From Actinomycetes bacterium (lineage in GTDB: Bacteria > Actinomycetota > Thermoleophilia > Gaiellales > Gaiellaceae), in assembly GCA_025964535.1 (NCBI GenBank), contig JAOPYX010000095.1, positions 1-55,873 of the forward strand: 55,873 nt of DNA, written 5' to 3'. This document shows positions 7,187 through 41,081 of the stretch, one piece after another; positions within the stretch are counted from its first letter, which is position 1; every line of letters starts with the position of its first letter. The notes under the pieces are model-generated. The model was not told the DNA's origin and did no database searches. It saw nothing but the letters and a program-made list of their open reading frames with translations. The translations under genes and the position numbers were made by a program.

Positions 7187-7264
7187 CCGTTTCCTTTCAG
7201 GCCTGGGGTGCCTTCGAGCGTAACGAGAAGGACCGTCCGGCGCGGGGTCGAACATTTTCGGTGC

Positions 7265-7669: not shown

Positions 7670-7720
7670 CAAGCCCAGCGCGGAAGCTGCGTAACAAGCC
7701 CCGCGCGGAAGCTGCCTAGC
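7653..7720. repeat. 25-nt tandem direct repeat, two full copies plus a partial third
   Basis: Copy 1 is gcgcgaaagctgcgtaacaagccca (7653-7677) and copy 2 is gcgcggaagctgcgtaacaagcccc (7678-7702). The first 13 nt repeat again from 7703. The repeat spans the convergent gap between two stop codons. Confidence 0.8.
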
Positions 7721-10130: not shown

Positions 10131-10173
10131 GCTGCTCCTCCGTGCTCGATCGTGGGATCTTGTCGTACGCCGG

Positions 10174-17485: not shown

Positions 17486-17566
17486 GCCCGGCGGAATGTA
17501 CCGCCTCCCCGGGGCGGAATGCAATCGTTGCCACACCGGCCCGGCTCAGGCATAGACTCGTCACCT
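17486..17566. promoter_or_regulatory. divergent promoter region with repeated GGCGGAATG motif
   Basis: 81-nt gap between divergent operons. GGCGGAATG occurs at 17490-17498 and 17513-17521. The first copy is part of the inverted repeat ggcgg-aatgta-ccgcc (17490-17505). Confidence 0.35.
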
Positions 17567-22115: not shown

Positions 22116-22168
22116 CTTCCCGCATCACTGTGTGGTTACGTTCCCATCTTGGTGTGGTTACGTTCCCA
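22112..22168 (+). promoter_or_regulatory. putative promoter element plus two tandem LacI-type operator sites
   Basis: TTGACT at 22112-22117. The 17-nt sequence gtgtggttacgttccca occurs identically at 22130-22146 and 22152-22168 (22-nt phasing). Its core TGGTTACGTTCCCA is an imperfect CG-centred palindrome, like LacI/cre operators. Confidence 0.5.
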
Positions 22169-22217
22169 CACGAACTCCGATTTTTCGGCTCTCAGGCGTC
22201 TCACTTGGAGGGTAGGC

Positions 22218-23570
22218 ATGCTCGTTCGGTGGAAGCGGATGGCGGTGCTCACAGCAGCAGCCGCAGCTCTTTCAGTCGTCGTCGCGTCGGGATTTGCCAA
22301 CGCGATGCCCACGAGGGGTGTGGTCGCCTCGGCGACGACGCTCAAGGTCTACGGCTTCGGGCCGGGCGACGAGATCGCCAACACCCGTGCCGACGTCGCG
22401 ACCGCCGCGGTCGGCGGCAGCGTCGACAACCCGCGCGGCGGGTTCAACGACCAGCAGTTCCTCGCGTCGGTCGCCTCGGGCGACGTCCCTGACGTCGTCT
22501 ACCTCGACCGCTACAAGATCGCGGAGTACGCGGCCAAGGGTGCCTTCCAGCCCCTGACGTCATGCGTCAAGAGCCAGAACGTCGACCTGACCCAGTACCG
22601 CAAGGCCGCGCTCAACGAGGTCACCTACAAGGGCAAGCTCTATGCGCTGCCAGAGTTCAGCAACCAGCGAACCGTGATCGTCGACAACAACGTCGTTGCC
22701 GCTGCCGGCCTCAAGGTGTCCGACCTGGACACGAAGAACTGGGGCAAGCTCGCGAACGCGAACCGGAAGATGCTCCAGAAGTCGGGCGGGCAGGTCACGC
22801 GGATCGGCTTCGACCCGAAGCTGCCCGAGTTCTTCCCCCTGTGGGTGAAGGCGAACGGCGCCGACATCCTGAGCAAGGACGGCCTGCACGCGCAGCTGAA
22901 CACGCCGAAGGCCGTTGCGGCGCTCAACTTCGCCTACTCGCTCATCCAGGCACACGGCGGCTGGGGCCCGTTCAAGGCGTTCCGCGACACGTGGGACTTC
23001 TTCGGCGCGGGTAACCAGGTCGCGAAGGACCAGGTAGGCGCTTGGCCGATGGAGAACTTCTACTACAACACGCTCGCGCAGGTCTCGCCGAACGTCAGCA
23101 TCACGGCGATGGCATTCCACAACCGCAAGGGCGGCCCGATTACGTACTTCAGCGGCCAGGGCTGGGCGATCCCGAAGGGCGCGAAGAACCCCGACCTCGC
23201 CTGCACGTGGATGAAGACGATCACCGACTCGCCGACCTGGGTGAAGGCCGCGAAGGTGCGTCTCGACGCGCAGAAGGCGAAGGGGCGGCCGTTCACCGGC
23301 GTCTACACCGCCAACTCGAAGGCCGATGTCAAGATCTTCCAGGACATCTACCAGCCGATGGGCAAGAAGCAGTTCGACGACGCGGTCACGCTGCTCGTCA
23401 ACGTCGGCAAGTACGCGTTCACCATTCCCGCGTCGCCCGCCGGCGCCGAGTTCCAGCAAGCGTGGATGGATGGCGTGAACCGTGTGCTCGCCGGATCCCA
23501 GACGCCCAAGCAGGCCCTGGATCAGGCGCAGAAGGAAGCACAGGCGGCAATCGACAAGGCCGCGAAGTAA
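22218..23570 (+). CDS. ABC sugar transporter substrate-binding protein (family 1 SBP)
   Basis: ATG 22218 is preceded by GGAGGG. Signal peptide MAVLTAAAAALSVVVASGFANA. Length and composition are typical of oligosaccharide-binding SBPs. Confidence 0.9.
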   Translation: MLVRWKRMAVLTAAAAALSVVVASGFANAMPTRGVVASATTLKVYGFGPGDEIANTRADVATAAVGGSVDNPRGGFNDQQFLASVASGDVPDVVYLDRYKIAEYAAKGAFQPLTSCVKSQNVDLTQYRKAALNEVTYKGKLYALPEFSNQRTVIVDNNVVAAAGLKVSDLDTKNWGKLANANRKMLQKSGGQVTRIGFDPKLPEFFPLWVKANGADILSKDGLHAQLNTPKAVAALNFAYSLIQAHGGWGPFKAFRDTWDFFGAGNQVAKDQVGAWPMENFYYNTLAQVSPNVSITAMAFHNRKGGPITYFSGQGWAIPKGAKNPDLACTWMKTITDSPTWVKAAKVRLDAQKAKGRPFTGVYTANSKADVKIFQDIYQPMGKKQFDDAVTLLVNVGKYAFTIPASPAGAEFQQAWMDGVNRVLAGSQTPKQALDQAQKEAQAAIDKAAK

Positions 23571-23599
23571 GACGGATTCACGCCGGCGTCTGACAAGAC

Positions 23600-25476: not shown

Positions 25477-25477
25477 G

Positions 25478-26509
25478 GTGGGAGCGGGTGCTCTGGAAGC
25501 CGTCGGGGACGACGGCTTGAACGCGCTGCTGGACGCTCCCGTGCTGGCGCTCGACATCGGGGGCACCAAGCTCGCTGCCGGTGTCGTCGGCAGCGACGGG
25601 AGCGTCCACTCCTTCGTCGTCGCCCCAACCGAGCCGGAGCGTGGGCCGGACGACGGGCTCGACCGCCTCTTCGAGCTCGGCCGCCGCGCGGTGGCCGACT
25701 CCGGGATCGACTGGGCCCACGTCGGTGCCGTCGGCATCGGCTGCGGCGGTCCGCTCGACAGCGCCAACGGCGTGCTGGTCGCACCGCTGCACCTGCCGGG
25801 CTGGCGCGACGTCGCCGTCGCCGCCAGGGCGCAGGAGGCCTTCGGCCGCCCGGCGGCGCTCGAGAACGACGCCACCGCGGCTGCGGCGGCGGAGCATCGC
25901 TACGGCGCTGGAGTCGGAACGCGCCACATGGTCTACCTCACGGTTTCGACAGGAGTCGGCGGCGGCGTGATCGTCGACGAACGGCTCTACCGGGGAGCGA
26001 TGGGAAACGGTGGCGAGCTCGGGCACGTGACGGTCGACTGCAACGGGCGCCTCTGCCGTGGCTGCGGCCGGCGAGGTTGCCTCGAGGCGTATGTTTCGGG
26101 CACGTCGATCGCCGAGCGGGCCCGCGAGGTGCTCGCGGAGACGGTCGGAATGTCGACGCTAGCGTTGCTCGCCGAGCCCACCGCGGCCGACGTCGCGGCG
26201 GCGGCGCGGAACGGCGACGCACTCGCGCAGCTGGTGTGGGACGAAACGGTCTTCGCCCTCGCGTGCGGGCTGACCTCGATCGTGAATCTCTTCGAGCCGG
26301 AGCTCGTCGTCGTCGGTGGCGGCGTCAGCCGGTCGGGCGAGCAGTTGCTCGGCCCGGTGCGCGAGCTCGTCCTTGCCGGGACGGTCCGGCCAGCCGGCGG
26401 AGGCGCGCGCATTGTCCAGTCGGCGCTCGGCGACCACGTCGGCATCGTCGGGGCGGCTGCAATCGTGTACGACCGCGTCGCCTCTGGCCTTATGCTCGTG
26501 CATGGCTGA
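25478..26509 (+). CDS. ROK-family sugar kinase
   Basis: LALDIGGTKLAAG, ENDATAAA and GELGH, plus the zinc motif CNGRLCRGCGRRGCLE typical of ROK kinases. Confidence 0.85.
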   Translation: MGAGALEAVGDDGLNALLDAPVLALDIGGTKLAAGVVGSDGSVHSFVVAPTEPERGPDDGLDRLFELGRRAVADSGIDWAHVGAVGIGCGGPLDSANGVLVAPLHLPGWRDVAVAARAQEAFGRPAALENDATAAAAAEHRYGAGVGTRHMVYLTVSTGVGGGVIVDERLYRGAMGNGGELGHVTVDCNGRLCRGCGRRGCLEAYVSGTSIAERAREVLAETVGMSTLALLAEPTAADVAAAARNGDALAQLVWDETVFALACGLTSIVNLFEPELVVVGGGVSRSGEQLLGPVRELVLAGTVRPAGGGARIVQSALGDHVGIVGAAAIVYDRVASGLMLVHG

Positions 26510-27077
26510 CGACGCACAGCAGTCCCTGGCGGAGCATCGCGCGCTGCTCGAGCAGATCGAGCAGCTCCTGCCGACGGTTGGCGAGATTGCGCAGCGCCTG
26601 ATCGAGACCTACGAAGCCGGCGGGCGGCTCTTCAGCTTCGGCAACGGCGGCAGCTCGTGCGATGCGCAGCACGTGGCGGAGGAGCTGGTTGCCCGCTACC
26701 GGCGTGAGCGGCGCCCCCTTGCCGCGACCTCGCTCAGCGCAGACGCGTCGGTGCTGACGTGCATCGCGAACGACTACAGCTTCGACGAGGTGTTCGAGCG
26801 TCAGGTGCGTGGTCTCGTCCGCCCCGGCGACATGGTCGTCGGGTTCACCACGAGTGGCCGGTCCGCGAACGTCGTGCGCGGCCTCGCGGCGGCGCGCGAG
26901 CTCGGCGCCACGACGGTGCTCTTCACCGGCGGCGATGGTCGCCCGGCGCTCGACCATGCCGATCACGCACTCGTGGTGCCGTCCCAGTCGACGGCCCGCG
27001 TGCAGGAGATGCACGTGCTGCTCCTCCATGTGCTGCTCGATCCCGTCGACGCATGGGCGGCAGGGGAGGCCTCTTGA
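26502..27077 (+). CDS. SIS-domain protein (GmhA/DiaA-like sugar-phosphate isomerase fold)
   Basis: ATG 26502, 191 aa. FGNGGSSCDAQH, VVGFTTSGRSANV and the QEMH motif match phosphoheptose-isomerase-like SIS proteins. Confidence 0.8.
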   Translation: MADDAQQSLAEHRALLEQIEQLLPTVGEIAQRLIETYEAGGRLFSFGNGGSSCDAQHVAEELVARYRRERRPLAATSLSADASVLTCIANDYSFDEVFERQVRGLVRPGDMVVGFTTSGRSANVVRGLAAARELGATTVLFTGGDGRPALDHADHALVVPSQSTARVQEMHVLLLHVLLDPVDAWAAGEAS

Positions 27078-29461
27078 GCGAGCGCTTGCTGCACATGATC
27101 GGCAACGCCCACATCGACCCGGTGTGGCTGTGGCAGTGGCCCGAGGGCTATCAGGAGGTGCGCGCGACGTTCGTGTCTGCGCTCGACCGGATGGAGGAGT
27201 ACCCGGAGTTCGTCTTCACCTCCAACTCGGTGATGTTCTTCTCGTGGGTCGAGGAGCACGATCCAGAGCTCTTCGAGCGCATCCGCGGGCGCGTTGCCGA
27301 CGGGCGCTGGCAGGTCGTCGGAGGTTGGTGGCTCGAGCCGGATTGCAACATTCCCTCAGGGGAGTCGTTCGTACGCCAAGCGCTGTACGGGCAGCGCTAC
27401 CTGCACGACCGCTTCGGGATCACGTCGACGACCGGCGCGAACTTCGACTCGTTCGGGCACAACGCGACCATCCCGCAGCTGCTCCGCAGGAGCGGCATGG
27501 ACTCGTACGTGTTCCTGCGCCCGGGGCCCCATGAGCGGCCGCTGCCGGGGCCGGTCTTCTGGTGGCAGTCGCCCGACGGCTCGCGTGTGCTCGCGTACCG
27601 CATTCCCCACGAGTACTGCAGCCCGGGCGGCGATCTCGGCAATCAGGTCGACAAGTCGCTCGCGCAGCTGCCGGCCGACGAGCCCGAGCTGATGGTGTTC
27701 TACGGCGTCGGCAACCACGGCGGCGGGCCTACTCGCGCCAACCTCGACAGCATCAGGCGCCTCAACGGCACGGGGACGCTGCCGCGCCTCGAGTGCAGCT
27801 CGCCGCGTGCGTTCTTCGATCGGGCAAACGGTCGCGAGCTGTCCGTGGTGGAAGGCGAGCTGCTCCACCACAGCCCCGGCTGCTACTCGGCGCATTCCGG
27901 CATCAAGCGCTGGAACCGCCGAGCGGAGAACCTCTTGCAGCGTGCGGAGAAATGGGCGGCGGTCGCCGACGTCGTGGCCGGCCAGCCGTACCCGCTCGCA
28001 CAGCTCACCGATGCCTGGAAGCTGCTGCTCTTCAACCAGTTCCACGACACGCTCGCCGGGACGTCGATCGCGCCCGCCTACGAGGACGCCCGCGACCAGC
28101 TCGGCTATGCGTCCTCGGTTGCGGCGCTGACGTTCAACCGTGCGATCCAGTCCGTCGCGCGCCGGATCGACATTCCGTTCGAGGAGGCGACGTATCCGGT
28201 GGTCGTGTTCAACCCGCATCCATGGCCGGTGCAGGCCGATGCCGAGCTCGAGTTCGTCGGTTTCCCCAACGACGAGGCGCGACTCACCGATGACGAGGGT
28301 CGGGATGTGCCCGTGCAGCGCACGCGATCGCACGCCACGGTCAACGGGGCGCGCGGCCGCGTCGTCTTTCGCGCAGACCTGCCGCCGCTCGGATATCGCA
28401 CCTACCGGCTGCGTGCCGGCGGTGCTGCATCGCTCGAGCCGGTGGGGAGCACGGTGCTCGCGAACGAGCACGTGACATTCGAGGTCGACGCACGCAGCGG
28501 GCGGCCCACTCGGCTCGAGGTGAACGACGTGAATGTGCTGCGCGACGGGCCGCACGCGGTCGTCGTGCGCGACACCTCGGATACGTGGGGACATCGCGTG
28601 CGTGCATACGACGACGCGATCGGCGAGTTCGAATGCACGTCCGTCAGACTCGTCGAGCGCGGCCCGGTGCGCTCGATCGTGCGCGTCGAGAGCCGGTACG
28701 CCTCGTCGACGCTCGTCGAGGAGTACGTGTTGTCGAGCGGGTCCCGTCACGTCGACGTCCGTGTCACCGTGGACTGGCGCGAGCAGCTGAAGTTGCTGAA
28801 GCTGCGCTTTCCGACCGCATGCGAGGAGCCGGACGCGACGTTCGAGATTCCGTACGGCAACGTCGTGCGGGCGGCGGACGGCGACGAGGAGCCCGCGCAG
28901 GCGTGGGTGGACGTCTCCGGTCCCACCGCCGGCTTGTCCGTGTGCAACGACGCGAAGTACGGCCACGACGTCAAGGACGGTGACATCGGCGTCACTGCGC
29001 TGCGCAGTCCCGCGTACGCGTGGCACGAGCCGAAGGAGCTCGACGAGAACGGCATCTACGACTACCTCGACCAGGGGCGGCAGGAGTTCACGTTGCGGCT
29101 CGTTCCGCACGAGGGCGACTGGCGCGCGGCCGGCACGGTGCGGCTGGCGGCGGAGCTGAACCAGCCCGTCTTCCCGTTGCTCGAGTCGTTCCATGCCGGC
29201 CCGCTGCCTCCGTCGACCTCGTTCGTCTCCGAGGGGGACGGCTCCGTGATCGTCACGGTGCTGAAGCGCGCGGAGGACGATGACGGCGATCTCGTCGTGC
29301 GCGCGTACGAGAGTGCCGGGCGGGCGACCAGCGCCACCATCGAGCTCCCGTTCCTCGACCGGAGGATCGACGCCGACTTCGGCGCCACCGAGATCAAGAC
29401 GTTCCGCGTCCCGCGCGACGGCGGCCCCATCGTGGAGACGAGCCTGCTCGAGTGGGGATGA
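27074..29461 (+). CDS. GH38 alpha-mannosidase (795 aa)
   Basis: TTG 27074 (TTGA overlap, GGGGAGG 5 nt upstream), or ATG 27095. IGNAHIDPVWLWQWPEG, GGWWLEPDCNIPSGES, FDSFGH and QFHDTLAGTS. Confidence 0.9.
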   Translation: MSERLLHMIGNAHIDPVWLWQWPEGYQEVRATFVSALDRMEEYPEFVFTSNSVMFFSWVEEHDPELFERIRGRVADGRWQVVGGWWLEPDCNIPSGESFVRQALYGQRYLHDRFGITSTTGANFDSFGHNATIPQLLRRSGMDSYVFLRPGPHERPLPGPVFWWQSPDGSRVLAYRIPHEYCSPGGDLGNQVDKSLAQLPADEPELMVFYGVGNHGGGPTRANLDSIRRLNGTGTLPRLECSSPRAFFDRANGRELSVVEGELLHHSPGCYSAHSGIKRWNRRAENLLQRAEKWAAVADVVAGQPYPLAQLTDAWKLLLFNQFHDTLAGTSIAPAYEDARDQLGYASSVAALTFNRAIQSVARRIDIPFEEATYPVVVFNPHPWPVQADAELEFVGFPNDEARLTDDEGRDVPVQRTRSHATVNGARGRVVFRADLPPLGYRTYRLRAGGAASLEPVGSTVLANEHVTFEVDARSGRPTRLEVNDVNVLRDGPHAVVVRDTSDTWGHRVRAYDDAIGEFECTSVRLVERGPVRSIVRVESRYASSTLVEEYVLSSGSRHVDVRVTVDWREQLKLLKLRFPTACEEPDATFEIPYGNVVRAADGDEEPAQAWVDVSGPTAGLSVCNDAKYGHDVKDGDIGVTALRSPAYAWHEPKELDENGIYDYLDQGRQEFTLRLVPHEGDWRAAGTVRLAAELNQPVFPLLESFHAGPLPPSTSFVSEGDGSVIVTVLKRAEDDDGDLVVRAYESAGRATSATIELPFLDRRIDADFGATEIKTFRVPRDGGPIVETSLLEWG

Positions 29462-31776
29462 GCGTGCTCGAGCGCAGCGAGTGGCAGCTGCGCGGCTGTC
29501 TAGGTCGCGAATGGGAGTGGCATACCGGCCCGGACAAGGCGTGGGACGCTCCCGGATGGCTGCCCGCCCGCGTCCCCGGCAGCGTTCTCGACGACCTGAT
29601 GCGCGCGGGCGAGGTCGCCGATCTGTACCACCAGCGCAACAGCCGTCTTGCCGAGTGGGTACCGGAGCGTGCGTGGGTCTACCGGACGCGCTTCGCGGTG
29701 CCTGCCGAGACGCCGCTGCTGCGCTTCGGGGGCGTCGACTTCGCGTGCACGGTGCTGGTCGACGGACGGGAGCTCGCGCGGCACGAGGGCATGTTCCGGC
29801 CGTTCGAGGTCGACGTGAGCGAGTACGCGGACGGGGCCGAGCATCTGCTCGCGGTCGTCGTCCATCCAGCTCCCGCAAGCGAGTCACAGGTCGGAGACAC
29901 GAGTCGCGTGCGCGTGCACAAGCCGCGCATGGGCTACGGCTGGGATTTCTGCCCGCGCCTCGTGCACCAGGGGATCTGGCGCCCGGTGCGGCTCGTGAGC
30001 CGCGATGCGCGCGACGTCCAGCCGCAGGTCACGCTCGAGGACGGCATCGGCGTGGTGCGGGCCGGAGGCGAGCTCGAGCTCCTCGACGGCGATCGTGTCG
30101 TCGCGACCGGAGCCGGAGAGCTGCGCGTCGAGTCGCCCGAGCTCTGGTGGCCGAACGGGCTGGGGCGGCAACACCTCTACACGCTTCGCGCCGCAGGGAA
30201 AGAGTTACGCATCGGCTTTCGCACGGCGGAGCTCATCCAGAACGACGGCGCGGCGGAAGGATCGCTGCCGTACACGCTCGTCGTCAACGGCGAGCGCGCC
30301 TACATCACCGGCTGGAACTGGACGCCGATCGATCCGCTCTACGGCGTCCCGCGACCGGAGAAGCTCGCACACCTGCTCGAGCTCACGGCGCGAGCGAACG
30401 TCAACCTGCTGCGCGTCTGGGGCGGCGGCCTGATCGAGACAGACGAGTTCTACGAGCACTGTGATCGGCTCGGCCTGCTCGTATGGCAGGAGTTCTCGCT
30501 GTCGAGCTCCGGGATGAACAGCGTGCCCGCTGACGACGACGCGTTCGTCCGCACGATGATCGACGAGGCGCGCGCGATCGTGCCCGCGAAGAGGCATCAT
30601 CCCTCACTCGCGGTCTGGTGCGGCGGCAACGAGCTGGCGCGGAGCGACCCTGCACGCGACGACGTTCCACTCGACGACGCGCATCCCGTGCTCGGTGCGC
30701 TCCGATCGGTCGTGCGCGAGCTCGATCCTGACCGTGCATGGCTGCCGACGTCGCCGTCAGGCCCGCGGTTCCTCAATCGGCTCGACGTGATTGCAGAGGA
30801 TCCGCGCGGCCAGCACGACGTGCACGGGCCATGGGAGCACCAGGGTCTTCGGCGGCACTACGAGCTCTACGACGCGGGCACCGCGCAGTTGCACAGCGAG
30901 TTCGGTGTCGAAGGGATGACGAACCGTCGGGCGCTCGAAGCGTTGATCGAGCCGGAGCACCGCTGGCCCGCCGATCGCTCGAATCCGATCTACGAGCATC
31001 TCGGCGCCTGGTGGAACAACGCGCCGCTCGTGCAGGAGTGCTTCGGCGGCCGCATCGCCGACCTCGACACGCTGCGGCGGGCGAGCCAGCAGCTCCAGTA
31101 CGACGGCCTGCGCTACGCCGTCGAGGCCGGCCGCCGGCGTGCGTTCCGCTCGAGCGGAACGATTCCCTGGCAGTTCAACGAGTCGTATCCCAATGCGTGG
31201 TGCACGGCGGCGGTCGATCACCGCGGCGACCCGAAGCCCGCCTATTGGGGCGTCAAGCGCGCGTACCGCGGCAGTCATGCGTGCGCGGCGTTCGCGACCT
31301 GCGCCTGGGGTGGCGAGCACGACGTGCGCGCACGCGTTCATGCCTGGGGAGACGCGCCACCCACCGCGCGAATCGTCGACCTGTACGGGACGGCCCTTGC
31401 GAGCGGCGACGGCGAGGTGAGTGTCGAGCTCGATCTGATCGGCACCGACGTCTTCTTCCTCGACCTCGATGTGAACCGCTACGTGATGACGCGCACGTCC
31501 GACCTCGCGCCGCTGCTCGATCTGCCGGCCGCGACCGTCGACGCCGAGCTCTCCGGATCGACGCTCACGTTGCGCAATACGGGTGCGGTCGCCGCGATCG
31601 GTCTCGTGCTCGAGGACGCGCGCCCAGTCGACACGCCCGGCTGGCTGACACTCTCCGACAACGTGATCGATCTGCTTCCGGGCGAGTCGCGCGAGCTCAC
31701 AGTCGGCTGGCGCGACGGCGAGCGGGGCCCGGTGCTCGTCGAGGGGTGGAACGTGGAGGACAGGCATGTCGCATGA
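29458..31776 (+). CDS. GH2 beta-mannosidase-like glycoside hydrolase
   Basis: ATGA overlap. ARVPGSVLDDL, WVYRTRF, the sugar-binding domain, NLLRVWGGGLIETDEFYEHCDRLGLLVWQEF and the CGGNE acid/base motif. Confidence 0.85.
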   Translation: MSVLERSEWQLRGCLGREWEWHTGPDKAWDAPGWLPARVPGSVLDDLMRAGEVADLYHQRNSRLAEWVPERAWVYRTRFAVPAETPLLRFGGVDFACTVLVDGRELARHEGMFRPFEVDVSEYADGAEHLLAVVVHPAPASESQVGDTSRVRVHKPRMGYGWDFCPRLVHQGIWRPVRLVSRDARDVQPQVTLEDGIGVVRAGGELELLDGDRVVATGAGELRVESPELWWPNGLGRQHLYTLRAAGKELRIGFRTAELIQNDGAAEGSLPYTLVVNGERAYITGWNWTPIDPLYGVPRPEKLAHLLELTARANVNLLRVWGGGLIETDEFYEHCDRLGLLVWQEFSLSSSGMNSVPADDDAFVRTMIDEARAIVPAKRHHPSLAVWCGGNELARSDPARDDVPLDDAHPVLGALRSVVRELDPDRAWLPTSPSGPRFLNRLDVIAEDPRGQHDVHGPWEHQGLRRHYELYDAGTAQLHSEFGVEGMTNRRALEALIEPEHRWPADRSNPIYEHLGAWWNNAPLVQECFGGRIADLDTLRRASQQLQYDGLRYAVEAGRRRAFRSSGTIPWQFNESYPNAWCTAAVDHRGDPKPAYWGVKRAYRGSHACAAFATCAWGGEHDVRARVHAWGDAPPTARIVDLYGTALASGDGEVSVELDLIGTDVFFLDLDVNRYVMTRTSDLAPLLDLPAATVDAELSGSTLTLRNTGAVAAIGLVLEDARPVDTPGWLTLSDNVIDLLPGESRELTVGWRDGERGPVLVEGWNVEDRHVA

Positions 31777-33484: not shown

Positions 33485-34806
33485 GGCGCTTTCCGGATGG
33501 CTTCCTGTGGGGCGTCTCGACGTCCGCGTACCAGGTCGAGGGCGCCGTCGACGTCGATGGGCGCGGTCGCTCGATCTGGGACACCTTCTCGCACACGCCG
33601 GGGAAGGTCGAGAACGGCGACACGGGTGACGTCGCGTGCGATCACTACCAGCGGCTCGAGAGCGATCTCGATCTGCTGCCCGAGCTCGGCGTCAACGCCT
33701 ATCGCTTTTCCATCGCCTGGCCGCGGCTCTTCCCGGACGGCCGCGGGCGCGTAGAGCGCCGCGGACTCGACCACTACGACCGACTGATCGACGGCCTGCT
33801 CGAGCGCGGCGTCGAGCCGGTCGTGACGCTGTATCACTGGGACCTGCCGCAGGCGCTCGAGGACGAGGGCGGCTGGCTCTCGCGCGACACGGTCGAGGCT
33901 TTCGCGGAGTACACGGCCACGTGCTTCGCCGCGTACGGCGACCGCGTCCGCTGGTGGGTGACGCAGAACGAGCCGTGGATCATCGGCGTCCTCGGCTATC
34001 AGCTCGGCATCCACGCTCCCGGGATGACCGACTTGCGCGCGTCGGTCGAGGCGATGCACAACGTGCTGCTCGCGCACGGACGCGCCGTCCAGGAGCTGCG
34101 GGCCGGTGGGACGGGCGGCAAGGTCGGGGCGGCGTTCAGCCTCTTCCCGAACTATCCGGCGACCGACACCGACGCCGACCGCGACGCTGCGCGACTCTCC
34201 GGGGAGTACGTCAACCGCTGGTTCCTCGACCCCGTGTTGAAGGGGTCGTACCCGGACGACATGCGCGCGCTCTACGAGGAGCGCGTCGGCCCGCTCCAGC
34301 TGGACGGTCTCGACACCATCGCAACGCCGAGCGACTTCGTCGGCGTCAACTACTACACCCGCCGCGTGATGCGCGCCGCGCCCGGGCGCGAACCGTTTCC
34401 GTGGGATGTGGAGCCTGCCAGGCCGGGTGTCCCGGTCACCGACGTCGGCTGGGAGATCGTTCCCGAGTGCCTCACCGACCTGCTCATGACGCTCAAGCAG
34501 GAGTACGGGGACGTGCCGGTGTTGATTCTCGAGAACGGCGGCGTCTTCGAGGACGCGGTGCACGACGAGGGGCGCATCGATCTGATCCGCGGTCACCTTG
34601 CCGCGGTGCGCGACGCGATCGAGCAGGGCGTCGACGTGCGCGGCTACTGCCACTGGTCGCTGATGGACAACTTCGAGTGGGCGATGGGCTATCGCGCACG
34701 CTTCGGCCTCGTGCACGTCGACTACGAGACGCAAGCACGGACTGTGAAGGACAGCGGGCGCTATTACGCGCAAGTCGCTCGCGCCAACGGACTGGAGGAC
34801 GAATGA
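33481..34806 (+). CDS. GH1 beta-glucosidase
   Basis: GTGA overlap. FPDGFLWGVSTSAYQVEGA, YRFSIAWPRL, acid/base TQNEP and nucleophile ILENG motifs. Confidence 0.92.
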   Translation: MRRFPDGFLWGVSTSAYQVEGAVDVDGRGRSIWDTFSHTPGKVENGDTGDVACDHYQRLESDLDLLPELGVNAYRFSIAWPRLFPDGRGRVERRGLDHYDRLIDGLLERGVEPVVTLYHWDLPQALEDEGGWLSRDTVEAFAEYTATCFAAYGDRVRWWVTQNEPWIIGVLGYQLGIHAPGMTDLRASVEAMHNVLLAHGRAVQELRAGGTGGKVGAAFSLFPNYPATDTDADRDAARLSGEYVNRWFLDPVLKGSYPDDMRALYEERVGPLQLDGLDTIATPSDFVGVNYYTRRVMRAAPGREPFPWDVEPARPGVPVTDVGWEIVPECLTDLLMTLKQEYGDVPVLILENGGVFEDAVHDEGRIDLIRGHLAAVRDAIEQGVDVRGYCHWSLMDNFEWAMGYRARFGLVHVDYETQARTVKDSGRYYAQVARANGLEDE

Positions 34807-36059
34807 AGCTCGCCGTGATCGGCGCCGGCTCGACGTACACCCCGGAGCTCGTCGACGGATTGATCCGCATGCGCGACCTACTGCCGCTCGACGCGCTCGC
34901 GCTGCACGACGTCGACGAGACCCGGCTCGGCACCCTCGCCGGAATGACGCAGCGGATGCTCGACCGCGGGGGTCATCCCGCCGAGCTCGCAGCCACGACG
35001 TCGCTCGACGAGGCGATCGAAGGTGCCGAAGCCGTGCTGATCCAGATCCGCGTCGGCGGGCAGGCCGTCCGGATCGTCGACGAGTCGGTGCCTCTCGGCT
35101 GCGGATGCCTCGGCCAGGAGACGACGGGCTACGGCGGTCTTGCGAAGGCCCTGCGCACGGTGCCCGTCGTGCTCGACATCGCCGAGCGCGTGCGCGAGCG
35201 CGCGCCGAACGCATGGATCGTCGATTTCACCAACCCCGTCGGCATCGTGACGAAGGCACTCCTCGACGCGGGCCATCGCGCGATCGGGTTGTGCAGCGCC
35301 GCGATGGTCTTCCAGCGCCACTTCGCGAAGGTGCTCGACGTGGCGCCCGAGCGGCTCGAGCTCGACCACGCCGGTCTGAATCACCTGACGTGGGAGATCG
35401 GCGTTCGCCTCGACGGCCGCGACGTGCTGCGGGAGCTGACGCACGAGCACGTCGCGCGCGTCGCGCCCGCTACCGGCCTGCCGCCCGAGCTCGTGGAGCG
35501 GCTCGGGGTCGTCCCGTCCTATTACCTCCACTATTTCTACGAGCACGACCGCGTCGTCGAGCATCAGCGTGCGCATGCGTCGCGCGCCGAGGAGGTCGCC
35601 TCGATCGAGCGCGAGCTGCTCGAGCTCTACGCCGACGAGTCGGTCGCCGAGAAGCCGGAGCTGCTCGGCCGCCGGGGCGGCGCGTTCTACTCGGAGGCCG
35701 CAGTCGAGCTGCTCGCAAGCCTGTTCGGGCGCGGTGAGAACATGCGGCACGTCGTCAACATGCGCAATCGCGGCACCTTCCCGTTCCTCGCCGACGACGC
35801 CGTGATCGAGGTGCCCGCGCGCGTCGAACCGAGCGGCGTGACTGCCGCCGCGCTGCCTCCCCTCGACCCGCAGTACCGCGGGCTTGTCTCGCACGTGTCG
35901 GCCTATGAAGACCTCGCGCTCGACGCCGCGCTGCACGGCGGCCGCGAGCGGGTCTTCCGCGCGCTGCTCGCGCACCCGCTCGTAGGGCAGCTCGACGTTG
36001 CGGAGAAGCTCACCGACGCGATGCTCGACGCGAACCGCGACTACCTGACATGGGCCTGA
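34803..36059 (+). CDS. GH4 NAD/Mn-dependent 6-phospho-glycosidase (CelF/ChbF-like)
   Basis: ATGA overlap. KLAVIGAGSTYTPELV Rossmann start, FTNPVGIVT, GLCSAA and GLNHLTW motifs of family 4. Confidence 0.88.
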   Translation: MKLAVIGAGSTYTPELVDGLIRMRDLLPLDALALHDVDETRLGTLAGMTQRMLDRGGHPAELAATTSLDEAIEGAEAVLIQIRVGGQAVRIVDESVPLGCGCLGQETTGYGGLAKALRTVPVVLDIAERVRERAPNAWIVDFTNPVGIVTKALLDAGHRAIGLCSAAMVFQRHFAKVLDVAPERLELDHAGLNHLTWEIGVRLDGRDVLRELTHEHVARVAPATGLPPELVERLGVVPSYYLHYFYEHDRVVEHQRAHASRAEEVASIERELLELYADESVAEKPELLGRRGGAFYSEAAVELLASLFGRGENMRHVVNMRNRGTFPFLADDAVIEVPARVEPSGVTAAALPPLDPQYRGLVSHVSAYEDLALDAALHGGRERVFRALLAHPLVGQLDVAEKLTDAMLDANRDYLTWA

Positions 36060-37027
36060 TCCTCGGCGTCGACGGCGGCAACTCGAAGACGGAGTTGTTG
36101 GTGGCCACGACGGACGGCGAGCCCGTCGCATATCTACGCGGCGCGGGGACGAACTCCCACGGCGTCGGCGTGCAAGGGGTCGTCGTCGTGGTCGGCCGGA
36201 TGCTCGAGCACGCGCGGATCGAGGAGCGTCCCGGGCACGGCGTCTTCTTTCTCTGCGGCGCCGACGTCCCGTCGGACATCGCCGAGCTGGCCGAGGCGGT
36301 CGAACGCGCAGGCTGGGTCGGCGAAGCACGCGTCGACAACGACACATTCGCACTCCTGCGTGCGGGCTCGGACGCAGCGGACGCCGTCGCCGTCGTCTGC
36401 GGTGCCGGCATCAACTGTGTCGGGCGCGCTGCTGATGGGCGCATCGCGCGCTACCCCGGACTCGGCTGGGAGACCGGGGACTGGGGCGGCAGCGAGATGC
36501 TCGGGCGTGACGCGCTCTTCCACGCTGCGCGTGCGGAGGACGGCCGCGGCGATGCGACGGTCCTCGCCGACGCCCTACGAGCTCATTTCGGCATCGACGT
36601 CGCCGCGCTCGGCGAGGACATCCACTACAAGCGACTGCGCAGCGAGCGGCTCGGTGAGATCGCCCCCGCCGTGCTCGACGCAGCCGAGCGAGGCGACACC
36701 GTCGCGTGCCAGCTCGTCGGTCGCCTCGCGGAAGAGATCGCGCTGCTCGCCGTGCGCGGGCTTCGCGATCTCGGTCTCCTCGAGCGGCCGTCCGACACGG
36801 TGCTCGGCGGCGGGATGCTCGGCGAGCGATGCGGCGTGCTGGTCGGCGAGGTCGTCGCGCGTCTCGAGCGGCGTGCACCGCAGACGCGGCCCGTGCTCGC
36901 TCCCGCGCGGCCGGTGCTCGGGTCGGCACTCGCCGCACTCGACGCCGCCGGTGTCCCGCTCGCGGCGCACGAGCATCTGCGCGAGCGCTTCGCCGGGATG
37001 CGTGTCGAGGACGTTCGTGAGCGTTGA
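36050..37027 (+). CDS. BadF/BadG/BcrA/BcrD-type ATPase, N-acetylglucosamine-kinase-like
   Basis: ILGVDGGNSKTELLV, CGAGINC and VLGGGM motifs of the ASKHA BadF-type kinase family. Confidence 0.8.
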   Translation: MGLILGVDGGNSKTELLVATTDGEPVAYLRGAGTNSHGVGVQGVVVVVGRMLEHARIEERPGHGVFFLCGADVPSDIAELAEAVERAGWVGEARVDNDTFALLRAGSDAADAVAVVCGAGINCVGRAADGRIARYPGLGWETGDWGGSEMLGRDALFHAARAEDGRGDATVLADALRAHFGIDVAALGEDIHYKRLRSERLGEIAPAVLDAAERGDTVACQLVGRLAEEIALLAVRGLRDLGLLERPSDTVLGGGMLGERCGVLVGEVVARLERRAPQTRPVLAPARPVLGSALAALDAAGVPLAAHEHLRERFAGMRVEDVRER

Positions 37028-37739
37028 GGTCTTGGCCGACTCTGCGGAGATCGGCTCCGCGCTGGCGGCCGAGATCCTCGAGCTCTACACACAGCGGGGC
37101 GGAAGCCGATTCTTGCTCGGCTGCCCCGGCGGCCGCAGCCTCCGCACGACCTACGCGGCGCTCGCTGCCTCCGGCGCCGATCTGCGAGATCTGGTGGTGG
37201 TGATGATGGACGAGTACGTCGTCGAAGGCGCGTTGCCGGCCGCCGATGCGCACTACAGCTGCGCGGGCTTCGCCCAGCGCGAGATCGCCGGGCCGCTCGG
37301 CGTGCCTGCCGAGCACGTCTGGCTCCCCGACCCGGCGGAGCCGGAGGCGTACGACGCGCGTATCGCAGAGGCAGGCGGCGTCGATCTCTTCCTGCTTGCG
37401 TCCGGTGCGTCCGACGGCCACGTGGCGTTCCTGCCTCCGCATTCTCCGCGCGACGGCAAGACGGCTGTCATCGAGCTCGCAGAGAGCACGCGTCGCGACA
37501 ACGTCGCGACCTTTCCGGAGTTCCGCTCGTTCGAGGAGGTGCCGCGGCACGGCGTCTCGGTCGGCGTGGGAACGATCCTTGCGGCGCGCCGGCTGCGCCT
37601 CGTCCTGCACGGCGCCGGCAAGCGCGATGCCGTGGGACGGCTGCTCGCGCTCGACGACTTCGACCCGGCCTGGCCGGCGAGCCTCGTCTATGCGCACACG
37701 GACTCACGAATACTCGTCGACAAGGAGGCTCTGCCGTGA
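37017..37739 (+). CDS. NagB/6-phosphogluconolactonase-family sugar-phosphate deaminase/isomerase
   Basis: GTG 37017 (alternative TTG 37032). LLGCPGGRS, MMDEYV and SGASDGHVAFLPP correspond to the GxxTGxTP, DER/DEY and GxDGHxAxxxP motifs. Confidence 0.7.
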   Translation: MSVEVLADSAEIGSALAAEILELYTQRGGSRFLLGCPGGRSLRTTYAALAASGADLRDLVVVMMDEYVVEGALPAADAHYSCAGFAQREIAGPLGVPAEHVWLPDPAEPEAYDARIAEAGGVDLFLLASGASDGHVAFLPPHSPRDGKTAVIELAESTRRDNVATFPEFRSFEEVPRHGVSVGVGTILAARRLRLVLHGAGKRDAVGRLLALDDFDPAWPASLVYAHTDSRILVDKEALP

Positions 37740-38593
37740 TCGGACTGGACGCGATCGCCCGCCCCAGTGGTGTGTTCTGCATGGTGGCGATGGACCAGCG
37801 GGAGTCGCTGCGCTCGATGCTCCGGGACCGCGGCAAGCCTGACGGCGATCAGGCGGTCGTCGACTTCAAGCTCGCTGTCGCGCGTGAGCTCGGGCCGTAC
37901 GGCTCCGGCTTCCTGATCGAGCAGGGGCCGGCATTCGACGAGATCGTGCGCGGAGGAATCCTGCCGAAGGCCTGCGGCTTGCTCGTGGCAGCCGACGCGC
38001 TCGATCAGGAGCGCGGCGGGATGGTCGAGGACACGTCGCTCGATCCGGCTGTCGATCCGTACGCCGCGGCGTCGGCGGGGGCGGCGGGACTGAAGCTGCT
38101 CGTGATCTGGCGCGACGACGCCGAGCGCCCGCGTCGTCTGGTTCTTGCGAAGACATTCGTCGAGACGGCGAGCGAGGCGGGGCTCCTCTCCGTGCTCGAG
38201 GGCATCGTTCGCGGTCCCGAGGGCTACGACCGCGATGCTGCGATCGTCGAGGCCGCCGAAGAGCTTGCCTCGGTCGGTCCGTCGCTCTACAAGGTCGAGG
38301 TGCCCGCGCACGGCAAGGGCGACGAAGCGGAGCTGAGCGCGCGCTGCGCCGCGATCGACAACGTGGTCGACGTGCCGTGGGTCGTGCTCTCGAACGGCGT
38401 CGCGCCGGAGGACTTCCCTGCAGCTGTCGCTGCTGCCTGCGCCGCCGGCGCATCGGGATTCCTTGCCGGACGCGCGCTCTGGACGAGCGTGCTCGATGCC
38501 GACGATCCTGCGCCGCTCCTCCGTGAGCGCTCCGTGCCGCGGTTGCAGGAGCTCGTCGAGCTCGTCGACGCGAAGGGGCGCCCGTGGCGCTGA
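37736..38593 (+). CDS. class I aldolase of the LacD/tagatose-bisphosphate (YihT-like) family
   Basis: GTGA overlap, AAGGAGG upstream. FCMVAMDQRESLRSML, the Schiff-base-lysine context LYKVEVP and FLAGRALW resemble LacD-type aldolases. Confidence 0.7.
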   Translation: MIGLDAIARPSGVFCMVAMDQRESLRSMLRDRGKPDGDQAVVDFKLAVARELGPYGSGFLIEQGPAFDEIVRGGILPKACGLLVAADALDQERGGMVEDTSLDPAVDPYAAASAGAAGLKLLVIWRDDAERPRRLVLAKTFVETASEAGLLSVLEGIVRGPEGYDRDAAIVEAAEELASVGPSLYKVEVPAHGKGDEAELSARCAAIDNVVDVPWVVLSNGVAPEDFPAAVAAACAAGASGFLAGRALWTSVLDADDPAPLLRERSVPRLQELVELVDAKGRPWR

Positions 38594-39615
38594 GCATCCG
38601 CGGCGTCATCGAAGGCTTCTACGGCCCGCCGTGGACACACGCCGATCGGCTCGACCTGCTCGGGTTCTGCGGCGCTCACGAGCTCGATACGTGGGTGCAC
38701 GCACCGAAGGACGATCCGTATCACCGTGAACGCTGGCGGGATCCCTATCCGGATGCCGAGCTCACGCTGTTGGCGGAGCTCGCCGCAGCGGCGACACGGC
38801 ACGGCGTCGACTTCGTCTGGTCTGTCGGCCCCGGTCTCTCGATGCGCTACTCGGACGACGCTGAGCTCGCGACGCTCGTGGCGAAATGCGAGCAGGTGCG
38901 CAGCGCCGGCATCCACGCCGTGCACCTGCTCTGGGACGACGTCGAGCACGACCTGCACGGGCCCGGTGACGAGGAGCGTTACGGCGGCGAGGTCAAGCCG
39001 AGCGCCGCGGCCCAGGCCGATGTGAGCAACCGCTTTCGCGCGGCGTTCCGCCAGGAGGCGCCCCTCGTCGTCTGCCCGATGGGCTATGCGGGCATCGAGC
39101 GCACGCCGTACCGCGACACGTTCGCGCGGCTGCTCGATCCGGAGATCCTCGTCTACTGGACGGGGCCCGAGGTGGTCTCCCAGGCGATCACGCGGGCAGA
39201 CCTCGACAGTGCAGCCGACTCGTTCGCGCACGAGCTCTTGCTCTGGGACAACTACCCGGTCAACGACTTCGACAACGAGCGGCTGTTCCTCGGGCCGTTA
39301 CGTGGCCGCGACGCCGGGCTCGCGCGCGGCGCGCTCGCCGGCATCCTCGGCAACGGCATGGTGCAGCCTGTCCCTTCGAAGCTGGCGCTCGCGACGATCG
39401 CCGACTTCGCGCGCGACCCTGACGGCTACGACCCGCTGGCGTCGTACGAGCGCGCGCTCGCCGAGCACGGCCCGGAAGTCGTGGAAGCGCTTCGCACGCT
39501 CGCGCCTTCTCCCGCCGACGTCACACGGCCCGAAGACGTCGCCCAGCTCGTCGAGGCGCTCGCCCCCGGTGTCGATGCCGCGACCGGGCTCGCACTGCTC
39601 GAGCCGTTCGCGTGA
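38584..39615 (+). CDS. GH84-like beta-N-acetylglucosaminidase catalytic domain
   Basis: IRGVIEGFYGPPW, the WDDV catalytic Asp-Asp pair context, YWTGP and WDNYPVND are GH84 signatures. No signal peptide and no accessory domains. Confidence 0.8.
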   Translation: MALSIRGVIEGFYGPPWTHADRLDLLGFCGAHELDTWVHAPKDDPYHRERWRDPYPDAELTLLAELAAAATRHGVDFVWSVGPGLSMRYSDDAELATLVAKCEQVRSAGIHAVHLLWDDVEHDLHGPGDEERYGGEVKPSAAAQADVSNRFRAAFRQEAPLVVCPMGYAGIERTPYRDTFARLLDPEILVYWTGPEVVSQAITRADLDSAADSFAHELLLWDNYPVNDFDNERLFLGPLRGRDAGLARGALAGILGNGMVQPVPSKLALATIADFARDPDGYDPLASYERALAEHGPEVVEALRTLAPSPADVTRPEDVAQLVEALAPGVDAATGLALLEPFA

Positions 39616-41081
39616 CGGACGTCGCGGTGTTCGGCGCGACCGCAGCGGGTGTCGCCGCGGCAGTCGGGGCGAGCGAGGCCGGCGCCGAGGTGGTACTCGC
39701 CGGGCCTGGAACCCATGTGGGCGGGATGGTATCCGGCGGTCTCGGCTGGACCGACGTTGGCGACGTCCGCGCGCTCGGCGGCTTTGCGCGCCGATTCTAC
39801 GCCGCGGTTGCCGAGCACTACGACGTGCCGCTCTGGGGTGTGCGCGGGCCCGAGCCGCACGTGGCGGAGCGGTTGCTCGTGCACGAGCTCGAGCGGGCAG
39901 GCGTGGACGTTCGGCTCGGCGAGAGCGTTCCGGAGGCTGCGGTCTATGTCGACGCGTCGTATGAAGGCGATCTCATGTCTACGCGCGGGGTCCCGTATGC
40001 CGTGGGGCGCGAGCCGCGTGAGCTCCACGGCGAGACGTGGGCTGGGCGCCAGCCTGCAACCCGCCCGGGCAAGCACAACTTCTCGGTCACGCTCTCACCG
40101 TTCGGCGACGACGGTGCGCTGCTGCCCTTCGTGCGCGAGCCGCAGCTCGACGAGCGTGGCTGGCCGAAGGACGACCTCGGCGCAGGCGATGGGGGCCTGC
40201 AGGCGTACGCATTCCGCGTCTGTCTCACCGACCGAGTGGACAACCAGCTTCCCTTCGAAGCACCGGAGGGTTATGCGCCCGACGACTTCGAGTTGCTGCG
40301 CCGGTACCTCGCAGCCTGCAGCGACCGTCTCGCCGCCTCCGATCTGCTCGGGCTCGTGCCGGGCCTCCTGCCGAACGGAAAGTGCGACGTCAACTCGATC
40401 GGGCCCTTCTCGCTGAACCTGCTGGACGGGAGCAACCGCGGCTATCCCGAGGGCGATGCCGCCGAGCGGCGGCGCATCAGTGAGCGCCATCTGCACTACA
40501 CGCAGAGCTTCCTCTACTTCCTCTCGCACGACGACTCGGTGCCGTCGCACATCCGAGACGGGGTCGCCGGCTGGGGGCGCTGCGCCGACGAGTTCATCGA
40601 CACCGCCGGCTGGCCGCACCAGCTGTACGTACGTGATGGACGGCGCATGCTCGGGGAGTACGTCCTGCGTGAGGGCGATCTGCTCGATGGGCGCGCGCAA
40701 CCTGACGTCGTCGCGCTCGGGTCGTACAACATCGACCTGCGCGAGATCGAGCGAACATGGCGCTATCTACCCGAGTACGTGCGCGAGCCGGCAGTGTTCA
40801 ACGAGGGGTATCTCTCTGTCGCCGTACCCGCGTACGCGATCCCCTACCGCTCACTCACGCCGCGCCGTGAGGATTCCACCGATCTCCTCGTGCCGGTCTG
40901 CCTCTCGGCGTCGCACGTCGCGTTCGGCTCGGTGCGCATGGAGCCGACGCTCATGCTGCTCGGCCATGCTGCGGGCATCGCGGCCGGGCTGGCGGCGCGG
41001 GCGGCGTGCGCCGTGCAGGACGTCGACGTCGCAGTGTTGCAGCGGCGCCTACTGGACGCCGGGCAGGTGCTCAGCCTTTGA
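39612..41081 (+). CDS. FAD-dependent oxidoreductase (FAD_oxidored/xanthan-lyase-misnamed family)
   Basis: GTGA overlap. Dinucleotide-binding start DVAVFGATAAGVAAA, then GGMVSGGLGWTD. Last gene of the plus-strand sugar arm. Confidence 0.7.
   Translation: MTDVAVFGATAAGVAAAVGASEAGAEVVLAGPGTHVGGMVSGGLGWTDVGDVRALGGFARRFYAAVAEHYDVPLWGVRGPEPHVAERLLVHELERAGVDVRLGESVPEAAVYVDASYEGDLMSTRGVPYAVGREPRELHGETWAGRQPATRPGKHNFSVTLSPFGDDGALLPFVREPQLDERGWPKDDLGAGDGGLQAYAFRVCLTDRVDNQLPFEAPEGYAPDDFELLRRYLAACSDRLAASDLLGLVPGLLPNGKCDVNSIGPFSLNLLDGSNRGYPEGDAAERRRISERHLHYTQSFLYFLSHDDSVPSHIRDGVAGWGRCADEFIDTAGWPHQLYVRDGRRMLGEYVLREGDLLDGRAQPDVVALGSYNIDLREIERTWRYLPEYVREPAVFNEGYLSVAVPAYAIPYRSLTPRREDSTDLLVPVCLSASHVAFGSVRMEPTLMLLGHAAGIAAGLAARAACAVQDVDVAVLQRRLLDAGQVLSL

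Follow-up and report, generated by a model that had tools for sequence, protein, structure and literature searches.

Import of oligosaccharides by an ATP-binding cassette (ABC) transporter, followed by their dismantling by cytoplasmic exo-glycosidases under a LacI repressor, is a well-known design, so an operon built in this way is, as a whole, not surprising. The N-glycan locus of Streptococcus pneumoniae reportedly combines an ABC importer for mannose-rich glycans with a cytoplasmic glycoside hydrolase family 38 (GH38) enzyme, with another alpha-mannosidase and with a ROK kinase, features shared by the operon described here, and is said to depend on a secreted endo-beta-N-acetylglucosaminidase, GH92 and GH125. 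In Cutibacterium acnes 266, two cytoplasmic N-glycan loci have been proposed, one with GH38, a beta-mannosidase and GH20 and the other with GH4, GH38, GH125, GH20 and a ROK kinase, among which the beta-mannosidase is the sole enzyme that was assayed (PMC6160142). We analysed a 55,873-nt stretch of DNA from an uncultured soil actinobacterium of the Gaiellaceae (assembly GCA_025964535.1, contig JAOPYX010000095.1; hereafter the window), in which positions 22218-41081 carry what is probably a modular, LacI-controlled, translationally coupled mannoside operon that imports a hetero-oligosaccharide containing mannose and takes it apart in the cytoplasm. Like C. acnes loci 1 and 2, this operon is actinobacterial and combines ABC import with exo-glycosidases lacking signal peptides, and it has counterparts of their Ams1-like GH38, beta-mannosidase, beta-HexNAc-ase, 5C3M-like GH4, ROK kinase and (alpha/alpha)6 partner of GH38, with GH5_18 replaced by GH2, GH20 by GH84, and GH125 by an unclassified barrel protein of 572 aa, here called unk572 (PMC6160142). 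No GH18 endo-enzyme was found here, and the operon goes beyond the C. acnes layout in having a GmhA-type isomerase, a GH1 enzyme, a YihT-like aldolase, a PF12831 flavoprotein, a tandem metallo-beta-lactamase (MBL)-fold protein and a clan GH-D-like glycosidase.

Because the window is about 70% G+C, genes were called from codon-position GC, using GC at third codon positions (GC3) at the 3' end of each open reading frame (ORF), together with inspection of starts and overlaps. By codon-position GC and the ORF listing, 15 plus-strand genes lie between 22218 and 41081; the first-pass annotation of this DNA had counted 16, a number reached only if the LacI gene, which lies outside that range, is included. 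Twelve of the 14 junctions are overlaps of 4-11 nt. The overlaps quoted in that annotation (ATGA at 24559, 29458 and 34803, GTGA at 33481, 37736 and 39612, and TTGA at 27074) are all present on inspection, and five more, of 8-11 nt each, lie at 26502, 31766, 36050, 37017 and 38584; the two remaining junctions are a 29-nt gap 3' of the gene for the solute-binding protein (SBP) and a 1-nt gap 5' of the ROK gene. Translational coupling of this kind is frequent in high-GC actinobacterial operons, so the overlaps indicate co-expression and nothing unusual. The real start of the unit is at 17567, with the tandem-MBL, GH-D-like and LacI genes ATGA-coupled upstream on the same strand, and the whole same-strand unit comprises 18 genes (17567-41081). 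Inside the operon, no sigma-70-like promoter was found and no convincing terminator, there being 2 weak terminator-like matches against 6.2 expected by chance. Inspection of the N-termini bore out the statement that the enzymes lack signal peptides: the SBP alone has a hydrophobic, signal-like N-terminus, and that of the flavoprotein is a dinucleotide-binding motif, not a signal. Overlaps, families and N-termini agree with the earlier proposal of an operon, supplied by an ABC importer, whose co-translated enzymes dismantle glycosides in the cytoplasm, and Pfam recovered all of the families named earlier, aside from refinements for the aldolase and GH4.

To place the operon among relatives, the unk572 protein was used as query, which yielded 80 loci; gene counts (Table 1) refer to the 54 loci with full flanks, and a co-occurrence table to the 58 loci that are 15 kb or longer. 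The closest loci (about 70% identity in unk572) were in metagenome-assembled genomes (MAGs) of Gaiellaceae and Gaiellales, and other carriers belonged to Pseudonocardiaceae, Micromonosporaceae, Streptomyces, Actinoallomurus and Microbacteriaceae, with one Chloroflexia MAG and one Bacillales MAG; homologues of unk572 that are 31-35% identical occur in other phyla. The order ROK-SIS-GH38-[GH2]-unk572 was invariant in Gaiellaceae, Pseudonocardiaceae, Micromonosporaceae, Streptomyces, Microbacteriaceae and the one Chloroflexia locus, the minimal locus (Jiangella) was SBP-permease-permease-ROK-SIS-GH38-unk572, and the Bacillales locus (L080) retained just two MBL genes, GH38 and unk572. In most loci an ABC importer comes with the ROK-to-unk572 block. 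GH2, GH1, the GH4/BadF/NagB-like genes, the aldolase, GH84 and the PF12831 flavoprotein are add-ons that differ from lineage to lineage. Gene-order maps always placed GH4 next to BadF, and the NagB-like gene was found only where GH2 is present (8/8 loci of the co-occurrence table). The slot for GH4, BadF and the NagB-like gene was empty in some Gaiellaceae loci and held one or two sulfatases in others: in a genome of the same genus (G006, locus L003, 10708-12201) a formylglycine-type sulfatase with an SGSH_C domain occupied it, and L048 carried two sulfatase copies between GH1 and the aldolase. The tandem-MBL gene lies outside 22218-41081, yet it belongs to the conserved system, and the pair formed by it and the GH-D-like gene was directly upstream of the operon in 5/5 Gaiellaceae genomes tested. 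An apparent mutual exclusion between GH2 and this pair was dropped, since the 10-kb limit on the flanks had created it artificially.

Table 1. Position, strand and basis of assignment of the genes and sites discussed, with their occurrence among the 54 full-flank loci
Feature	Position	Strand	Basis of assignment	Loci (of 54)
MsiK/UgpC-like ABC ATPase	16301..17536	-	NCBIfam NF008653, 447 bits, above cut-off; heads divergent operon	
Tandem MBL-fold protein, 605 aa	17567..19384	+	Pfam Lactamase_B twice	20 (beside unk572 homologues)
Clan GH-D-like (GH31/GH36-like) glycosidase candidate, 563 aa	19381..21072	+	ATGA-coupled to MBL gene	
LacI-family repressor	21069..22115	+	NCBIfam matches to RbsR/GntR/CytR-type LacI regulators	
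Candidate LacI operators	22130..22168		Two exact 17-bp copies of GTGTGGTTACGTTCCCA, 22 bp apart, between LacI and SBP genes	
CUT1-type SBP	22218..23570	+	Pfam SBP_bac_1; GGAGGG Shine-Dalgarno site	
ABC permeases, two	23600-24562 and 24559-25476	+	Pfam BPD_transp_1	41
ROK sugar kinase	25478..26509	+	Pfam ROK, 199 bits	49, always directly before SIS
GmhA-type SIS isomerase, 191 aa	26502..27077	+	43% identical to E. coli GmhA	49, between ROK and GH38
GH38 alpha-mannosidase, Ams1/MAN2C1-like	27074..29461	+	Pfam GH38N, middle and C domains; PDB 7vqo, 1e-72	53
GH2, beta-mannosidase clade	29458..31776	+	PDB 5n6u, 9e-55, then 6bye, 2je8, 6ddt	23; optional insert between GH38 and unk572
unk572, 572-aa enzyme candidate (N-terminal beta-sandwich and (alpha/alpha)6 barrel)	31766..33484	+	AlphaFold2 (AF2) fold	
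GH1 beta-glucosidase	33481..34806	+	TIGR03356, 590 bits vs cut-off of 478	32
GH4 NAD-dependent glycosidase, 6-phospho-beta-glucosidase-like	34803..36059	+	PDB 1s6y and 5c3m, 3e-83; BglT, 1e-63	14
BadF/NAGK-type sugar kinase	36050..37027	+	Pfam BcrAD_BadFG	14
Divergent NagB-like sugar-6-phosphate deaminase/isomerase	37017..37739	+	Pfam Glucosamine_iso	8
YihT-like class I aldolase	37736..38593	+	PDB 7ag1, 1to3 and 7ag7, 5e-63, vs LacD, about 1e-7	34
GH84, catalytic domain only, 343 aa	38584..39615	+	Pfam NAGidase, 315 bits, positions 1-294 of 295	11 (12/58 of loci of at least 15 kb), mostly Gaiellaceae
PF12831 flavin adenine dinucleotide (FAD)-dependent oxidoreductase-family protein (flavoprotein)	39612..41081	+	Pfam, 276 bits	20

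The predicted mannose-directed part of the core is formed by the ROK, SIS and GH38 genes. The ROK protein scored below every NCBIfam equivalog cut-off and is a candidate mannokinase or hexokinase. Aligned with E. coli GmhA, a sedoheptulose-7-phosphate isomerase, the SIS protein has all catalytic and phosphate-loop residues (E65 and H180, plus Q172 and the TSGxS Ser/Thr phosphate loop), whereas its gene sits between ROK and GH38, not among heptose-biosynthesis genes. Given its score below the GmhA equivalog cut-offs and the mannoside-catabolism context, its physiological substrate probably differs from that of GmhA, and conversion of mannose-6-phosphate to fructose-6-phosphate is the predicted reaction. 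No gene for a type-I phosphomannose isomerase (manA) was found in the genome, which is 76.6% complete, a figure against which all genome-wide absences reported here are read; this is compatible with the GmhA-type SIS protein serving as mannose-6-phosphate isomerase. The operon GH38 has an HxD metal motif at residues 13-15 and lacks the Ams1 N-terminal domain. Its PDB matches place GH2 in the beta-mannosidase clade; 6ddt among them is deposited as a beta-mannosidase, which we take to be the lysosomal enzyme.

The remaining constant partner, unk572, had no Pfam, NCBIfam or PDB sequence match, and a PDB sequence profile search with its alignment returned just LanC-like and YteR noise. The family is small, with 410 clusters in 1.8 billion representatives. 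Its AF2 model, with a mean predicted local distance difference test (pLDDT) score of 95, has a barrel for which the structure search gave tied matches at Z 25-28 (MmpH, which is the methylmannose-polysaccharide hydrolase of mycobacteria, alpha-1,6-mannanases of GH76, mannose isomerase, cellobiose 2-epimerases and YihS). The best whole-length fold match was the polysaccharide lyase family 27 (PL27) enzyme 5no8, a weak match with a template modelling (TM) score of 0.46-0.48 and 8-10% identity. The nearly invariant residues are largely Asp, Arg, Trp and Tyr with one His, and AGE-type epimerases use a pair of His residues, so unk572 better fits a putative hydrolase or lyase than an epimerase of that type. 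It sits in the slot that GH125 holds in the C. acnes locus; assignment as a GH125 exo-alpha-1,6-mannosidase was rejected, as there was no PF06824 match and the two have no more than the general (alpha/alpha)6 fold class in common. A 919-aa unk572 relative (P0025) bears a C-terminal MBL domain, a fusion that points to a functional link between unk572 and the MBL protein. The tandem-MBL protein itself had weak PDB matches only, of lactonase and methyl-parathion-hydrolase types, and no informative characterised relative. The GH-D-like protein matched no Pfam family; by structure, its ESM Atlas matches (TM 0.92-0.94) were clusters bearing the names alpha-galactosidase or GH31.

The operon itself contains no ATPase gene for the importer, which the MsiK/UgpC-like ATPase at the head of the divergent operon likely energises. 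PDB relatives of the SBP were weak, at about 1e-15 (4qrz, and 4r9f, whose deposited name is 'MBP1'). Its N-terminus (window 22218-22310) is a Sec-type signal (...VVASGFANA) with no lipobox Cys, which is unusual for an actinobacterial sugar-binding protein, and the region of the SBP and permease genes (22001-26000) has a G+C of 0.65-0.66 against about 0.70 for the rest of the window. Each copy of GTGTGGTTACGTTCCCA ahead of the SBP gene is a pseudo-palindrome, 10/14 self-complementary around a central CG, and in three Gaiellaceae loci (L008, L018 and L025) the motif TGGKWACGTWMCCA occurs again between the LacI and SBP genes. The ATG of the LacI gene overlaps the stop of the preceding GH-D-like gene. 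The operon is probably LacI-repressed through the duplicated 17-bp candidate operator.

Among the accessory genes, GH4 is nearest to 6-phospho-beta-glucosidases, not alpha-galactosidases, and has an N-terminal GAGS NAD-binding (GxGS) motif. BadF matched MurK (8zo3, 2e-15), a broad archaeal hexokinase from Sulfolobus (1e-9) and NAGK in the PDB, the nearest being N-acetylmuramic acid (MurNAc)/N-acetylglucosamine (GlcNAc) kinases. The NagB-like protein is 33% identical to E. coli NagB and retains Asp72 and His143 with Glu148 lost. In GH84 the Asp-Asp pair is intact (D118/D119 in LLWDDVEH); the GH84 enzymes known to us act on O-GlcNAc-type substrates, not chitobiose. The aldolase had been called LacD-like and is better described as YihT-like, since its matches to sulfofructose-1-phosphate aldolases far exceed those to tagatose-bisphosphate aldolases (Table 1). 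It is a class I enzyme 40% identical over its full length to YihT of Embden-Meyerhof-Parnas-type sulfoglycolysis (sulfo-EMP) in E. coli/Salmonella, and K186 and R246 are the equivalents of the Schiff-base Lys193 and of Arg253, the reference residues (PMC8006165). Asn replaces Ser227, and YihS, YihU/GabD and a sulfonate exporter are missing from the gene's surroundings. The two conserved residues alone are no proof of sulfonate specificity. Elsewhere the usual companions of the aldolase gene encode a kinase of the FGGY or PfkB type, a protein resembling Asp/Glu racemases and a xylose-isomerase-like barrel, and here FGGY, PfkB and xylose-isomerase-like barrel genes lie in the divergent minus-strand operon. 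In the Bacillales locus L080 (11848-13795), a class-II-aldolase-family protein and a DUF1537 kinase follow MBL-GH38-unk572 and replace the amino-sugar genes; we take these two to resemble OtnC/OtnK of four-carbon acid-sugar catabolism. For the PF12831 flavoprotein no sequence relative was found in the PDB, and the AF2 model, from a 21-sequence alignment, was not used (mean pLDDT 51); a literature search returned nothing specific on PF12831 or on this combination of GH families. The flavoprotein gene is directly 3' of unk572/GH1 in Pseudonocardiaceae loci. Homologues 34-38% identical stand directly behind TonB-dependent receptors on plasmids of Spirosoma oryzicola (L090) and Sphingobium yanoikuyae (L088), and in the former two PF12831 homologues are the sole enzymes of a FecR-SusC-SusD cassette, a setting which suggests that this subfamily acts on imported glycans.

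Put together, an effector would free LacI from the two tandem 17-bp operators 5' of the SBP gene, after which the SBP and the two permeases, powered by the nearby MsiK-like ATPase, would import the oligosaccharide. GH38 would take off alpha-mannose, unk572, the GH-D-like glycosidase and the tandem-MBL hydrolase might open linkages beyond the reach of GH38, and the ROK kinase and GmhA-type isomerase would turn mannose into mannose-6-phosphate and then fructose-6-phosphate. The add-ons would widen the range, with GH2 acting on beta-mannose, GH1 on beta-glucose and GH84 on beta-GlcNAc. As a joint module, BadF may phosphorylate a beta-glycoside, GH4 cleave it and the NagB-like enzyme process the resulting sugar-6-phosphate; the YihT-like aldolase may split a ketose-1-phosphate made by the kinase and isomerase genes of the divergent neighbouring operon, and the flavoprotein would act on the glycan or a sugar. 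As substrate class we tentatively favour fungal or plant high-mannose-type glycan fragments, with the N-glycan core as a subset. The genome holds two GH76 endo-alpha-1,6-mannanase-family genes, which is compatible with feeding on alpha-mannan-type material.

The first-pass annotation had put forward a Man-GlcNAc2-type core as substrate. An operon dedicated to this N-glycan core or to chitobiose would use GH38 and unk572 for the alpha-mannoses, GH2 for Man-beta-1,4-GlcNAc, GH84 for GlcNAc-GlcNAc, and BadF with the NagB-like enzyme for GlcNAc salvage. Consistent with these roles, GH38 is Ams1-like, GH2 falls in the beta-mannosidase clade and resembles the deposited beta-mannosidase 6ddt, GH84 is intact, the BadF kinase is of the MurNAc/GlcNAc (HexNAc) type, the NagB-like gene is confined to GH2-bearing loci, and the proposed C. 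acnes loci are analogous in layout down to the 5C3M-like GH4 and the ROK kinase (PMC6160142). The HexNAc and beta-mannoside genes are accessory, however, with most core-bearing loci lacking GH2, GH84 and the NagB-like gene, and half of the operon (GH1, GH4, the YihT-like aldolase, the flavoprotein, MBL and GH-D-like) would have no role. As had been reported, no NagA is present in the window, and profile searches found none above cut-off in the genome either; GH20, GH92 and GH125 were missing from the genome, and GH18 and GH85 from window and genome alike. Cross-feeding could account for the lack of GH18 and GH85. None of the secreted endo-enzyme, GH92 and GH125 on which the pneumococcal locus reportedly depends was found in the genome, and instead of a chitobiose-cleaving GH20 with a NagK-NagA-NagB funnel there is GH84, a family not known to us as chitobiase, and a NagB-like protein without Glu148. 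With the Man-GlcNAc2 genes accessory, these families missing, a YihT-like aldolase present and Glu148 lost, the N-glycan core is partly supported, as one of several possible substrates, and dedication of the operon to it is unlikely.

The aldolase and the fold of unk572 raise a different option, in which the substrate would be a mannose-containing acidic glycan fragment or glycoside (with a uronic, aldonic or other anionic sugar), for instance xanthan-like Man-GlcA-Man side chains or other exopolysaccharides, with unk572 acting at the linkage between mannose and the acid sugar, possibly as a lyase, and the aldolase on a 6-anionic ketose-1-phosphate. The best whole-length match of unk572 is a Rha-alpha-1,4-GlcA lyase (PL27), GH88/GH105 unsaturated-uronyl hydrolases are among its barrel matches, and the partners of the YihT-like aldolase elsewhere include FGGY/PfkB kinases, Asp/Glu-racemase-like proteins, xylose-isomerase-like barrels and DUF1537 acid-sugar kinases. 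Actinobacterial xanthan loci (Microbacterium xut, bioRxiv 10.64898/2026.04.20.719765; a Paenarthrobacter ilicis plasmid, PMC12772297) likewise have LacI-type regulators, ABC importers, cytoplasmic GH38, beta-glucosidase, a mannose kinase/isomerase pair (a GlcNAc-kinase-type kinase and a mannose-6-phosphate isomerase) and an FAD-dependent oxidoreductase, with no recognisable GH88. Those loci, however, have PL8 xanthan lyase and GH9 endoxanthanase as their defining enzymes, they use GH3 and manA where this operon has GH1 and a GmhA-type isomerase, and unk572, GH2, GH4 and GH84 are not reported in them (10.64898/2026.04.20.719765; PMC12772297). Neither PL8 (Lyase_8) nor GH9 was found in the genome, on which ground a xanthan-specific locus was rejected; the weak PL27 match is tied with many other barrels, and no uronate isomerase or 2-keto-3-deoxygluconate (KDG) pathway genes were identified in the window, which together leave an acidic substrate of this kind rather improbable. 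In a broader form, the core (MBL, GH-D-like, importer, ROK, SIS, truncated Ams1-like GH38 and unk572) could constitute an undescribed pathway, widespread in Actinomycetota, for a mannosylated compound carrying an anionic or acid sugar, which we consider doubtful. A sulfo-EMP branch for sulfoquinovose glycosides would make the GH-D-like protein a sulfoquinovosidase and the aldolase a sulfofructose-1-phosphate aldolase; identity to YihT with the equivalents of the Schiff-base Lys and of Arg253 kept, a GH31-like glycosidase upstream and a PfkB kinase in the neighbouring operon fit such a branch. Actinobacterial sulfo-EMP clusters retain YihS, YihV, YihT, GabD and TauE (PMC8873060), whereas Pfam searches of the window found no AGE-family match that could be a YihS-type isomerase, no sulfolactaldehyde reductase or dehydrogenase (GabD, YihU) and no TauE-type exporter. 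The sequence similarity of unk572 to YihS is not significant, the GH-D-like protein has no similarity to YihQ, and the aldolase is missing from 20/54 core-bearing loci. Sulfoglycolysis was therefore ruled out by the lack of YihS, GabD/YihU and TauE, and such a branch has next to no probability.

Several observations weigh against our preferred reading of a mannoside operon for high-mannose-type fragments. Gene set, coupling, family and subfamily placement, catalytic motifs and synteny are observed directly, and the specificities were carried over from homologues that are 30-45% identical; the ROK, SIS, GH4, NagB-like and aldolase proteins all fall below NCBIfam equivalog cut-offs, and the PDB sequence search gave the SBP no close or informative characterised relative. 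Actinobacterial GH76 enzymes may serve the cell's own lipoglycan metabolism. The system is patchy, with unk572 in 1/24 sampled genomes of the same genus. Finally, an anionic sugar, a component foreign to a plain high-mannose glycan, is hinted at by the YihT-like aldolase, by acid-sugar kinases at distant loci and by the sulfatases in G006/L048.

Apart from three uncharacterised enzymes, this is an ordinary kind of system, and its value is as a map: a compact block of ROK, GmhA-type isomerase, GH38 and unk572, usually with tandem-MBL and GH-D-like genes, surrounded by lineage-specific modules, is found repeatedly in soil and plant-associated Actinomycetota and extends to Chloroflexia and Bacillales. 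Concrete candidates open to testing emerge from it: a new carbohydrate-active enzyme family, a non-canonical mannose-6-phosphate isomerase, and a role for the PF12831 flavoproteins that SusC/SusD cassettes also contain. Several carriers of the core are cultured organisms, among them Naasia aerilata NBRC 108725, Streptomyces flaveolus NRRL B-1589 and members of Leifsonia, Actinophytocola and Micromonospora. Should the case of an undescribed pathway hold, up to four new enzyme activities would follow: unk572 as a new glycoside hydrolase or lyase family, the SIS protein as a non-cupin mannose-6-phosphate isomerase, the YihT-like protein as an aldolase for a non-sulfonated 6-anionic ketose-1-phosphate, and the PF12831 protein as a flavoenzyme acting directly on glycans.

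On the other side of the unit, the divergent operon (6491-17536, minus strand) encodes, besides the MsiK-like ATPase, a second GH38 (13479-16304), full-length and Ams1-like with the Ams1 N-terminal domain, a PfkB kinase (12679-13482), an Iso_dh-family dehydrogenase, a GH13 protein, a xylose-isomerase-like barrel, an FGGY kinase and an MBL-fold protein. Because FGGY, GH13 and xylose-isomerase-like barrel genes recur beside the unk572 core in other genomes, the two divergent operons seem to form a single functional island spanning about 35 kb. Downstream, Gaiellaceae loci such as L008, L009 and L026 carry genes for a xylose-isomerase-like barrel, a Gfo/Idh/MocA oxidoreductase and a galactokinase 3' of the flavoprotein gene, which are not there in this window. 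The flavoprotein gene here is followed by a convergent minus-strand ORF (41071-42510, 479 aa) that matched no Pfam or NCBIfam family and had no homologue among the 80 related loci; it is strongly coding in composition (GC3 0.90), and there is an 11-nt overlap between its 3' end and the flavoprotein stop.

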